From assembly GCA_951406725.2 (NCBI GenBank), contig OX597818.1, positions 31,186,001 to 31,250,000 on the forward strand: 64,000 bases of DNA, given 5' to 3'. Within the stretch, counting starts at the first letter, position 1. Every line of letters begins with the position of its first letter. This document shows, in pieces, positions 13,275 to 50,002 of the stretch. This DNA comes from Octopus vulgaris. Lineage: Eukaryota. Position numbers and translations under genes: made by a program. The notes below the pieces were generated by a model. The model made no database searches. It was not told where the DNA came from and saw only the letters and a list, made by a program, of their open reading frames with translations.

Positions 13275-13470
13275 GTGTGGGCAACCTGCGGTCCATGGGA
13301 CATTTGGAATGGCACGTCTAACGAAAAATTACCTTGAAATTTTTCAGTAGTGCGACCCGCCTGATGACGAGCTATGCCTTATGTGGCCCGCCTGATGACA
13401 AGCCATATCTTATGCGGCCCATGCCTAATAGAAAATGGCTACTCATGCCTAGTAGAAGAGCCACGTTGGC
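13275..13470 (+). mobile_element. Possible hAT-type non-autonomous element fragment with internal ~30-bp subrepeats
   Basis: gtgggcaacctgcggtcc start and repeated (g)gcccgcctgatgac motifs. Confidence 0.35.
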
Positions 13471-20140: not shown

Positions 20141-20476
20141 GTCCCCCTCCTCCTTCCTTCTTTCTCACTCCCAGCCTAAAAATTTCTCTCTTTCGCACGC
20201 CGCCTCTGCTATTGAAAAGTCTTGCTTTCCACACGCTGCCACACAACATCTTTCATCTAGCCAAAAAAAGGCCTTTTTCGTCTGTTTGGTTTTTCTCATT
20301 TGTCTTCGTGTTTGTTTGATTTCCCGTATTGTATTCCCTTTTTATTTCTCGTCTTGTATTTTTTTGTACATGTATTTTTATCTTGTATTTTATTGTGCAG
20401 TTTTATTGTTACATCCTGTTTGTGTTCTTACCCGTTTTACCCCGCTGCTTGGAATTTTATTTTAATTCTCCCGCAG

Positions 20477-20546
20477 GAAGGCCTAGTTAACGAGTGTCCT
20501 GTCTTGCCTTCGAAACACGCCTGAGTTAACTAGCGACAGCTGATGA
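20477..20546 (+). ncRNA. Candidate non-circularly permuted hammerhead ribozyme, copy 1
   Basis: gaaggc ctagttaac ga gtgTC ctgtc tt gccttc GAAA cac gcctga gttaactag c gacag CTGATGA. Confidence 0.7.
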
Positions 20547-20834
20547 CGGTGGATTTTTCCTTGTGTAGCATGTCCTGCACTTGTTTTCTTGTTGTAAAAA
20601 ATTTTTGGATTTTTCCTTGTGTAGCCTGTCCTGTACTTGTCGTTAAATTTTTGTTTTTCCCGTTTCTTTCTACGTCTTGTTGTGGCGTCCTGTACTTACG
20701 TATATTTATTTATATATGCATGTATATATACATGTAGATGTAGGTACGTACATATATGTTTGTATGTATGCATATATTTTTAATTACCACATTATATATA
20801 TATATATATATATGTATGTATAACGGTTACTGAT

Positions 20835-22655: not shown

Positions 22656-22695
22656 TCCGCAAAAAATCCCAAATTTTATTTAATTTGCTTTGCGG

Positions 22696-22772
22696 GAAGG
22701 ACTGTTTCAACGAAATCACGTCTTGCTCTTGCCTTCGAAACGTGAAATAGTTGAAACAGGGACAACTGAAGA
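22696..22772 (+). ncRNA. Candidate non-circularly permuted hammerhead ribozyme, copy 2
   Basis: gaagg a ctgtttcaac gaaa tcacgTC ttgctc ttg ccttc GAAA cgtga aata gttgaaacag g gacaa CTGAAGA. Confidence 0.7.
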
Positions 22773-22945
22773 AGGGGAAATTCTTTATGTTGTATGTCTC
22801 GTTTCTCTATTTGTTTTTTTTTCGTTGTCCGAGAAAAAGTTCGTTTCTATGCTTTTTTTATGTTTTCACTTCTCATTGTGTTCAACGTTTTTTTTTATGT
22901 CCTGTAACCCATATATGCATGTATATATACATATATATGTAGGTA

Positions 22946-47904: not shown

Positions 47905-48822
47905 CGTATGAGAGAGTCAGAGAGAATGTGTATGTGTATGTGTGTGTGAGAAAGAGAGAGAGAAAATTCTAAATCTCAGTTTAATCACTAATACTTGTAA
48001 ATCCCTCATTTCATTTATATTATTAATATTCTTTACAAATTAATTATTGATGCAACTACACTTTTTTACCACCACATTATACCTATAGGGTCAAATGACA
48101 ACTGAAATGGAAAATCTAAATAAATAATTTCTACTCTGTCTCTTGATCGAAGAAAATTACTATTTTGAGTTTAAACTTTAAGCCATTTTTCTCTGATGAT
48201 TACAGGAAACTTCGTCAGTGAGTAATTCGTCATCCGAGTTACCACAAGACACTTAGGTAGCTGTAGTGAAGTTGACTCTGCTGTATTTGGGCCATATTTC
48301 CTGTCTAACTATAACTTGCTCCTTCCCTTCCATCAGCATCGGAGTTCCTGAAGAACGGTCATTGTTGTTTCCCTTCGTTATCCAGCAAATCAATAACAAT
48401 TCGTTACGCCTGGCTTTCGCAAATACCTCAAAAAGACATCTCTAGCTAACAACAATGAAAACACTCCAGTTTCCTATCTGTTTTTAAGGCAATACTTTTT
48501 CCTATGAGTTCAAATCTCACAATGGTTAAACATTGCCTTTCATCTTTCTACGTTCTATAAAATATGTACCAGTAGTATAATGGCATCTATTTTATTGATT
48601 GTAACCTTCACAAAATATAAATCCCCCTGAAGTATACTATCGATTTACTGTTGGTGTAACACACCTTGTATTTTAGCACTTTAGGCTCAACCAGTGTCTG
48701 TAAATCCTGAAATATTTTACCTCGTGTGCACTAAGTTTTGGAATATATACTTAATCTGTTATCCGGGTTCCCACACAACCCTAGGGTAGATGTAATGAAT
48801 ATATTTAAAAAAAAGACACAAT

Positions 48823-49036
48823 TTCTTTCTTTCTTTCTTTCTTTTACTTGTTTCAGTCATTTGACTGCAGCCATGCTGGAGCACCGCTTTTAGTCGAGCA
48901 AATCGACCCCAGAACTTATTCTTTGTAAGCCTAGTACTTATTATATCGGTCTCTTTTGCCGAACCGCTAAGTTACGGGGACATGAACACACCAGCATCGG
49001 TTGTCAAGCGATTTTGGAGGGACAAACACAGACACA

Positions 49037-49085
<49 letters not shown>

Positions 49086-49273
49086 ATATATATATATATA
49101 TACTTATACACGACAGGCTTCCTTCAATTTCCGTCTATCAAATCCACTCACAAGGCTTTGGTCGGCCCGAGGCTATAGTAGAAGACACTTGCCCAAAGTG
49201 CCACGCAGTGGTACTGAACCCGGAACCATGTGGTTGGTAAGCAAGCTACTTACCACACAGCCACTCCTGCGCC
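48823..49273 (-). mobile_element. Full-length CORE-like SINE
   Basis: Reverse complement of the 49545-50002 element; starts ggcgcaggagtggctgtgtggtaag. Confidence 0.9.
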
Positions 49274-49330
49274 TATATATATATATAAGTACAAACAAAC
49301 GGAAAGCACACATTGGATATCACCAAATCC

Positions 49331-49404
49331 TCGTCAGTTATCATCCAGAAGATCGTAGCAATTTCACGCATTTAACGATAATATTGATTCTCTTTGGTGG
49401 CGTC
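49331..49404 (-). ncRNA. Candidate non-circularly permuted hammerhead ribozyme, copy 3
   Basis: Minus strand: g acgc ca ccaaaga gaat caaTA ttatc gttaaat gcgt GAAA ttg ctacga tcttctgg at gataa CTGACGA. Confidence 0.65.
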
Positions 49405-49544
49405 AGTGACGAGAAGCCAACGGGAAATAGCGAGCAAACGAACAAGGGACCAAAGACGACTGAGAGTGAACATACAAATATGAGGAAAATATGCGATAAA
49501 CAATACACATCATACAAACGAAATAATATTCAAGACGAGACGAA

Positions 49545-49942
49545 TGAGTGGCTGTGTGGTAAGTAGCCTGCTTACCAACCACACGGTTCCGGGTTCAGTC
49601 CCACTGCGTGGTATCTTGGGAAAGTGTCTTCTACTATAGCCTCGGGTCGACCAAAGCCTTGTGAGTGGATTTGGCGGACGGAAACTGAGAGAAGCCTGTC
49701 GTATATATATATATATATATGTATGTATATGTGTGTGTGTGTTTGTGTGTCAGTGTTTGTCCCCCATAACATCGCTTGACAACCGATGCTGGTGTGCTTA
49801 CGTTCCCGTTAATTAGCGGTTCGGCAAAAAGAGGCCGATAGAATAAGTACTAGGCTTACAAAGAATAAGACGTGGGGTTGATTTGCTCGACTAAAAATGC
49901 GGTGCTCCAGCATGGCCGCAGTCAAATGACCGAAACAAGTAA

Positions 49943-50002
<60 letters not shown>
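49545..50002 (+). mobile_element. Full-length CORE-like SINE with (GAAA)n tail
   Basis: gagtggctgtgtggtaagtagc..gggttcagtccc..., same family as 26087. Confidence 0.9.

Follow-up and report, generated by a model that had tools for sequence, protein, structure and literature searches.

The window analysed here is a stretch of 64,000 nt of Octopus vulgaris DNA (assembly GCA_951406725.2, contig OX597818.1, positions 31,186,001 to 31,250,000, forward strand), and positions are counted from its first base. On the minus strand lies a hammerhead-like motif, copy 3, inside the remnant of a dispersed repeat, and two further motifs of the same architecture, copies 1 and 2, are found on the plus strand. 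The features are listed below.

49287..49545, minus strand: 5'-truncated remnant of repeat family F3, 259 nt, ending in (TA)n
49433-49320, minus strand: full motif of copy 3, from the 5' strand to the 3' strand of P5
49423..49433, minus strand: 5' strand of P5, pairing with the strand after CUGANGA, with a 2x2 U loop (9/9 pairs)
49404..49422, minus strand: P6 hairpin, ending directly before 10.1 (6/7 pairs in copy 3)
49400..49403, minus strand: 5' strand of stem II, from upstream; ACGC 49403-49400 pairs with GCGT 49369-49366
49390..49397, minus strand: 5' strand of P0 (6/8 pairs in copy 3)
49375..49386, minus strand: site block, with the 5' strand of stem III, U16.1, H17 and one strand of stem I
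49359..49369, minus strand: G block, with the 3' strand of stem II, GAAA and the 3' strand of stem III (direct reading)
49345..49352, minus strand: 3' strand of P0, placed by its pairing with the 5' strand
49331..49344, minus strand: partner strand of stem I and the CUGACGA core (CTGACGA 49337-49331)
49320..49330, minus strand: 3' strand of P5, beginning directly after A9, placed by pairing
20436..20560 (ends approximate), plus strand: copy 1, young family F1, same architecture, H17 at 20498
22656..22785 (ends approximate), plus strand: copy 2, family F2, same architecture, core at 22766

Core and stems of copy 3

Read 5' to 3', the core blocks of copy 3 come in the order site, GAAA, CUGANGA, and a residue check found the hammerhead core residues CUGANGA, GAAA and UH all present. 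On direct reading of the minus strand the GAAA occupies 49365-49362 and is abutted on its 5' side by the GCGT of stem II (49369-49366). Stem III is formed by CAAT 49386-49383 and ATTG 49362-49359, and stem I by 49381-49375 and 49344-49338, which gives 7, 4 and 4 contiguous bp for stems I, II and III around the core. H17 is the A at 49382 in an AUA site, and the cut is predicted 3' of it; in the accessible text of PMC1636495, where four triplets were compared in one viroid hammerhead, AUA is the slowest.

The core with this block order on the minus strand had been proposed in a first-pass annotation and is borne out by the direct reading. The stem I described there does pair, over 7 bp instead of the 5 bp given. 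P0 is likewise a helix, while the bulged register proposed for it re-registers decay, the family register being 8 bp of which copy 3 keeps 6. The extent of 49331..49404 covered the core; the motif reaches 49433-49320, and P5, P6 and the repeat context had been missed. We also agree that copy 3 is no more like copies 1 and 2 than shuffles are, as 232/300 and 62/300 shuffles align as well, and copies 1 and 2 are related to each other (0/300 shuffles).

A comparison with dinucleotide shuffles had been suggested as a check, and was run with a descriptor demanding site, GAAA and CUGANGA in this order and stems I and III of at least 4 bp each. It gave 2 matches in the window, in keeping with the annotation, whereas 200 local shuffles averaged 0.04; the shuffle mean drops to 0.015 once the upstream stem II and P0 are demanded as well (window, 200 shuffles). 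The matches are copies 1 and 3; copy 2, with a stem I of 3 bp, is missed. A relaxed descriptor run over the adjoining 200 kb speaks the other way, with 1 match only, while 30 shuffles gave 0-3 each. Searched against Rfam, the window had no match at gathering score, and near the motif there was only one chance match. Elsewhere in the window, two near-identical units about 480 nt apart (60537 and 61017, minus strand) have CTGATGA followed by a short stem-like stretch and do not match the descriptor, and a 31-nt direct repeat at 13361-13410 has CTGATGA in each unit.

The minimum-energy fold of the copy 3 motif is unremarkable (z -1.18), as expected for a motif that is doubly pseudoknotted and decayed. 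Its lowest-energy folds depart from the model, and in one of them the core is hidden by pairing with bases upstream. This alternative helix, 49412-49404 / 49336-49328 on the minus strand, covers most of CUGACGA and rivals P6; it is retained in most F3 rows and may possibly be an off state.

Repeat families and copy number

Copies 1, 2 and 3 each belong to a separate dispersed family, F1, F2 and F3. The relatives of copy 1 are 90-98% identical and those of copy 2 about 89%. For F3, 42 matches of 70-98% identity were obtained from 40 scored of 345 candidates (candidates for F1 and F2 numbered 948 and 4,365), and a tight F3 pattern search returned 1 locus. Family copies are 5'-truncated, have (TA)n ends and also form tandem arrays, whose units measure 713-772 nt and contain no ORF; the F3 unit is non-coding and about 740 nt long, with a tandem spacing of 737 nt at one locus (L016). 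In a fourth family, F4, a tandem of 713 nt (L288:1560-2798; 99% near-identical) carries the full motif in every unit. Around copy 3 itself, inverted copies of a SINE-like repeat with a microsatellite are found at 48822-49274 and 49538-49964 (84% over 457 nt), the window having four copies of this repeat, and in a read-through transcript of the inverted copies copy 3 would sit in the loop of a long hairpin.

A genome-wide count of the spacing GAAA-N22-25-CUGANGA gave 44,136 occurrences; its reversed control gave 2,875. Among the first 90 spacing matches, which come from the first 4 Mb of one contig, 62 were placed in motif families and 28 were not. The total of 44,136 is too high a count because 8 of the 90 matches, all among these 28, fall within the coding sequence of a LINE that ends in an (AAT)n tail, and extrapolation from the first-4-Mb sample gives roughly 30,000 genomic motif copies. 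This LINE is abundant (L197, L210, L219, L224, core spacing at about position 1500) and gives weak zf-RVT matches; in 4/4 of its matches examined there is no CUGANGA downstream. Another repeat, in L214, L272 and downstream in L219, has GAAA and CTGACGA at hammerhead-like spacing, and the descriptor finds no stems I and III there.

The origin of the stem II strand

To see which strand completes stem II we used the 30 well-formed rows (good stems I and III) of the 90-row sample. The first-pass annotation had assigned this role to the strand upstream of the site, and this is supported: the upstream strand pairs over at least 4 bp in 24/30 rows (shuffled mean 10.3, max 17), whereas no row (0/30) has even 2 bp between the strand before GAAA and the bases that immediately follow CUGANGA. 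With Watson-Crick pairs only the upstream figure is 21/30 rows vs 4.4 in shuffles (max 11), and a control window of the same size downstream gives 19 and 11 rows, respectively. The upstream stem II has at least 7 distinct sequences, which differ between families and all pair; stem II covaries across families. For F3, 52 rows were aligned and 37 used, after removal of 15 that were truncated or unrelated; stem II is closed by A-U in 19/37 rows and by G-C in 8/37 (Fisher p 0.005), a switch that falls on essentially one branch. P0 has a similar A-U/G-C switch (23 vs 7 rows).

A closing helix between the strand adjoining stem II and the downstream strand was considered and rejected; in the nearest 20 nt pairing was about that of shuffles (2/23 rows), and the strand forms P6.

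P5, P6 and a predicted four-way junction

When the flanks were folded unconstrained, a P6 ending at 10.1 together with a P5 starting after A9 appeared in 19/29 rows, with 1.04 expected; the 29 rows are mutually related, and F1, F2, F3 and F4 each show the result. The 9/9 pairs of P5 in copy 3 are also present in both F3 subfamily majorities, in which P6 (7/7) and P0 (8/8) are complete. Over the whole model the F3a majority forms 42/42 pairs, F3b 40 and copy 3 37 (F3 range 27-39). On the F3 alignment A1, 81% of the cells are paired vs 33-43% after sliding, the model having been derived from the very sequences aligned there. The alignment has 63 double-sided cells, a value reached in 1/500 shuffles, and F3 pairs with double changes number 22 vs 19.2 shuffled, which is not significant; the F3 covariation amounts to few events, part of which CpG decay imitates.

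On this structural model, A9 and 10.1 are separated by a predicted four-way junction built with P5 and P6; in F3 the junction is without unpaired bases. P5 and P6 would close the nick, with stem II staying stacked on the G12/A9 face via the continuous 11.1-G12 strand, P5 would stack on P6, and P0 would tie stems I and II. The kink-turn consensus is a 3-nt bulge followed by tandem G.A pairs. Set against it by eye, the stretch from P0 to stem III contains a 1x4 loop in F3, and in F4 there is a tandem GA whose bulge is on the opposite strand.

5' ends of truncated copies

Reverse transcription of cut RNA would be expected to yield truncated copies that start at or after the site. The starts of F2 and F4 copies were tallied by eye relative to the predicted cut. 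For F2 (51 loci among the matches listed, 100 of 478) none was at -6..-1, 9 were at the cut (8 of them clear) and 42 at +1..+21; for F4 (26 loci among the matches listed, 100 of 4,990) 23 were at 0..+11, including 6 at the cut, and 3 at -1..-19. A scripted sample, with which 5 of the F4 loci overlap, gave 21 starts in 20 nt (-3..+16) vs 7 in the 42 nt upstream (p 0.0004). F1-type copies start upstream of the cut at 9/33 loci, and the truncated rows of F3 give no timing of the cut, since their site is too rich in A and T (12 rows shown of the 15 dropped). It should be noted that TA microhomology favours T starts, and that the base after the cut is T in F2 and F4. In the scripted sample 34/62 copies run through the site, and therefore any cleavage must be partial. 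As read from these insertion ends, the step at the predicted cut suggests cleavage in vivo. At L128/L129 two Naiad-type tails 602 nt apart both start at the predicted cut after (TA)n, where the exact base is ambiguous (TA). Sequencing-run contigs, from runs not recorded as RNA, span copy 1 in pieces.

Relation to Naiad elements

In the accessible text of Craig et al. 2021 (PMC8557442) Naiad elements are reported to be without a canonical hammerhead, and eight 'half-core' ('HHR_half_core') cases are flagged. We examined by eye 14 of the 54 Naiad consensus ends in the displayed part of the supplement, taking the names of preceding entries from the order of the sheet. The four-way form was seen at two octopus ends, one coral and one acanthocephalan end, the latter two with a 6-bp upstream stem II. 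A squid end, with the four-way form and a weak stem II, is a partial case; two nematode ends and one spider end have plain CSG, and at six ends nothing was visible in the text displayed.

In the genome, 399 sites match the octopus Naiad-type tail exactly. Among eight loci with a Naiad ORF-end motif, 3 have a complete core 950-1,260 nt downstream, one of them (L295) with an RT motif upstream, and a sister tail family is linked to the Naiad ORF end. Among the 16 longest plausible frames scanned, of 187 listed, none with an N-terminal GIY-YIG and a C-terminal RT could be linked to F3, and no ORF was linked to F1, F2 or F4 in the search for a coding partner. Nor was RT found by a Pfam scan of 13 decayed Naiad fragments, or a Naiad ORF at L287. 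A 499-aa frame abutting a truncated F3 piece (L201:3-1499, minus) was rejected as partner; it is on the opposite strand, matches Pfam RVT_1 and looks like an unrelated LINE, the type to which it presumably belongs.

F3 and Naiads are alike in their (TA)n targets, 5' truncation and partial tandems, and the four-way form stands at several Naiad 3' ends; unlike Naiads, F3 is without an ORF and without a shown sequence link to them. The (TA)n insertion, truncation and partial tandems are common to other Penelope-like elements and hence not diagnostic. The Naiad link for F3 rests on the architecture together with the (TA)n targets and tandem units.

Comparison with known hammerheads

As described in the accessible text of Eckert et al. 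2023 (PMC10085705), the types SGC (HRIMA-1 and variants) and CSG (two metagenomic sequences) are proven by cleavage, and a contiguous CUGANGA and stem II strand is assumed. The form described here, with its core split between A9 and 10.1, shares with SGC the order site, GAAA, CUGANGA, a short link from stem I to stem II, the full core and a helix linking the far sides of stems I and II, which judging from the strand order would be P0. It differs in that block C is interrupted, the stem II strand coming from upstream and P5/P6 closing the gap. An uninterrupted block C failed in our rows, with 0/30 pairing over at least 2 bp and F3 pairs 2-3 failing. CSG keeps A9 joined to 10.1, whereas the split-core form opens there and inserts two helices. 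Drawn as a circle, SGC, CSG and the split-core form would share one strand order, P0 included; the split-core form would work like SGC and CSG, yet it fails one defining assumption of SGC.

Non-LTR retrozymes (bioRxiv 10.64898/2026.07.22.740005) and the minimal hammerheads of Penelope elements (PMC4209133) are similar to the present families in having non-coding tandem units with one hammerhead each, and according to the accessible text of these two reports non-LTR retrozymes depend on Penelope-like elements. Their hammerheads are described there as belonging to type I; stem III is often weak in them, and dimers are the proposed acting form, whereas the split-core fold is self-contained, with six helices, and doubly pseudoknotted. 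The tandem units of the F families hold the rearranged form, not the type I hammerhead of non-LTR retrozymes. Neither the split-core form nor a rearranged hammerhead in a Naiad turned up in our literature search, mostly of open-access papers. A rearranged Xenopus hammerhead has reportedly been noted as well, and was not found in that search.

Origin of copy 3 and alternative explanations

We consider it probable that copy 3 is a decayed hammerhead-type fold with reversed order, its core predicted to be split at A9/10.1 and to carry a four-way junction, of a kind that likely cleaves a non-coding parent RNA probably mobilised by Naiad. What was observed is that the core of copy 3 is intact, that it belongs to a repeat family, that its strands come in this order with stem II completed from upstream, and that the 5' ends of truncated copies show a step at the predicted cut. 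We infer that the fold would be complete only after the strand following CUGANGA is made, and that cleavage would trim tandem or read-through transcripts and so fix the 5' end of the template. The trimmed RNA would then be copied into (TA)n by a Naiad reverse transcriptase and endonuclease, and the joining step would cost 0-20 nt. Copy 3, which carries about 160 nt upstream of the site, would derive from an uncut template.

The same motif could instead be a structural signal that serves the reverse transcriptase, packaging or RNA stability; stalling, a protein nuclease or microhomology, and not self-cleavage, would then account for the step in 5' ends. The F2 starts do spread over +1..+21, beyond what the cut alone would give, most full copies read through the site, and minimal Penelope hammerheads are poor cleavers in vitro (PMC4209133, accessible text). 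We regard this as unlikely, however, as every catalytic core residue is retained across families whose stems differ, and as stalling is expected within the 3' strands of helices, whereas 23/51 F2 starts are at 0..+7, upstream of those, and peak at the cut with none at -6..-1. Another reading is that the ordinary link is the active one, the bases after CUGANGA and the strand before GAAA forming a stem II of one pair or rich in G-U, and that pairing of the upstream strand, together with P5/P6, represents an off state or a switch. A9 is indeed followed by G in 31/37 F3 rows, which could pair with 11.1 (33/37), 6/30 rows reach 4 bp or more with the downstream bases when 1-2 extra bases are tolerated, and one extra base at this place is known in Penelope hammerheads (PMC4209133, accessible text). 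The next two F3 pairs nevertheless fail (3/37 and 11/36), across families 11.1 is C in 30/30 rows while the base after A9 is G in 3/30, F4 is without a downstream partner, and the coral and acanthocephalan Naiads have the four-way form with their 6-bp upstream stem II (by eye, in the displayed supplement); this reading seems quite improbable to us.

Very unlikely, in our view, is a dimer in which the ribozyme folds across neighbouring units of a tandem or between separate molecules. Tandems, with units of 713-772 nt, do exist and Penelope hammerheads have been proposed as dimers (PMC4209133, accessible text), but all six helices find their partners within about 115 nt, and stem III, of 4-7 bp, is not palindromic. 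It remains to consider whether copy 3 itself is kept by selection for a host function, to which we give only the slightest chance. Its core is intact, whereas only 12/29 other F3 copies keep theirs, and its 37/42 pairs are in the upper part of the F3 range. Against this, copy 3 differs from its subfamily majority at 19/130 bases, with breaks in stem II, stem III, P0 and P6 among the differences, and it was selected for study because it looked intact.

Selection and decay

In F3 the mismatch at non-CpG positions is 4.7% in the core vs 13.4% at other positions, while the stems, at 15.4%, are no better kept than those other positions. As far as the sequences tell, the pattern fits constraint on source lineages followed by neutral decay of the copies. 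The earlier proposal that the fold is under selection stands for the source elements and is not borne out for copy 3 itself, which keeps 37/42 pairs and is one of hundreds of decaying copies. Copy 3 now probably drifts neutrally and may still be weakly active; it is an ordinary decayed copy, and its value is in the family.

Implications

For the family as a whole we think it rather likely that the active topology is one outside the six-permutation scheme, its backbone interrupted within the core and joined again through a perfect four-way junction, and is the missing ribozyme of many Naiads, from corals to cephalopods, present in tens of thousands of copies and with its cut recorded in the 5' ends of insertions. 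If true, this would overturn the working assumption that the hammerhead core blocks cannot be interrupted, and non-circular permutations would move from orphan metatranscriptome contigs to animal genomes, at very high copy number. It would also explain the 'half-core' Naiads, and with insertion 5' ends piling up at the cut, the role of hammerheads in Penelope-like elements would become directly testable.
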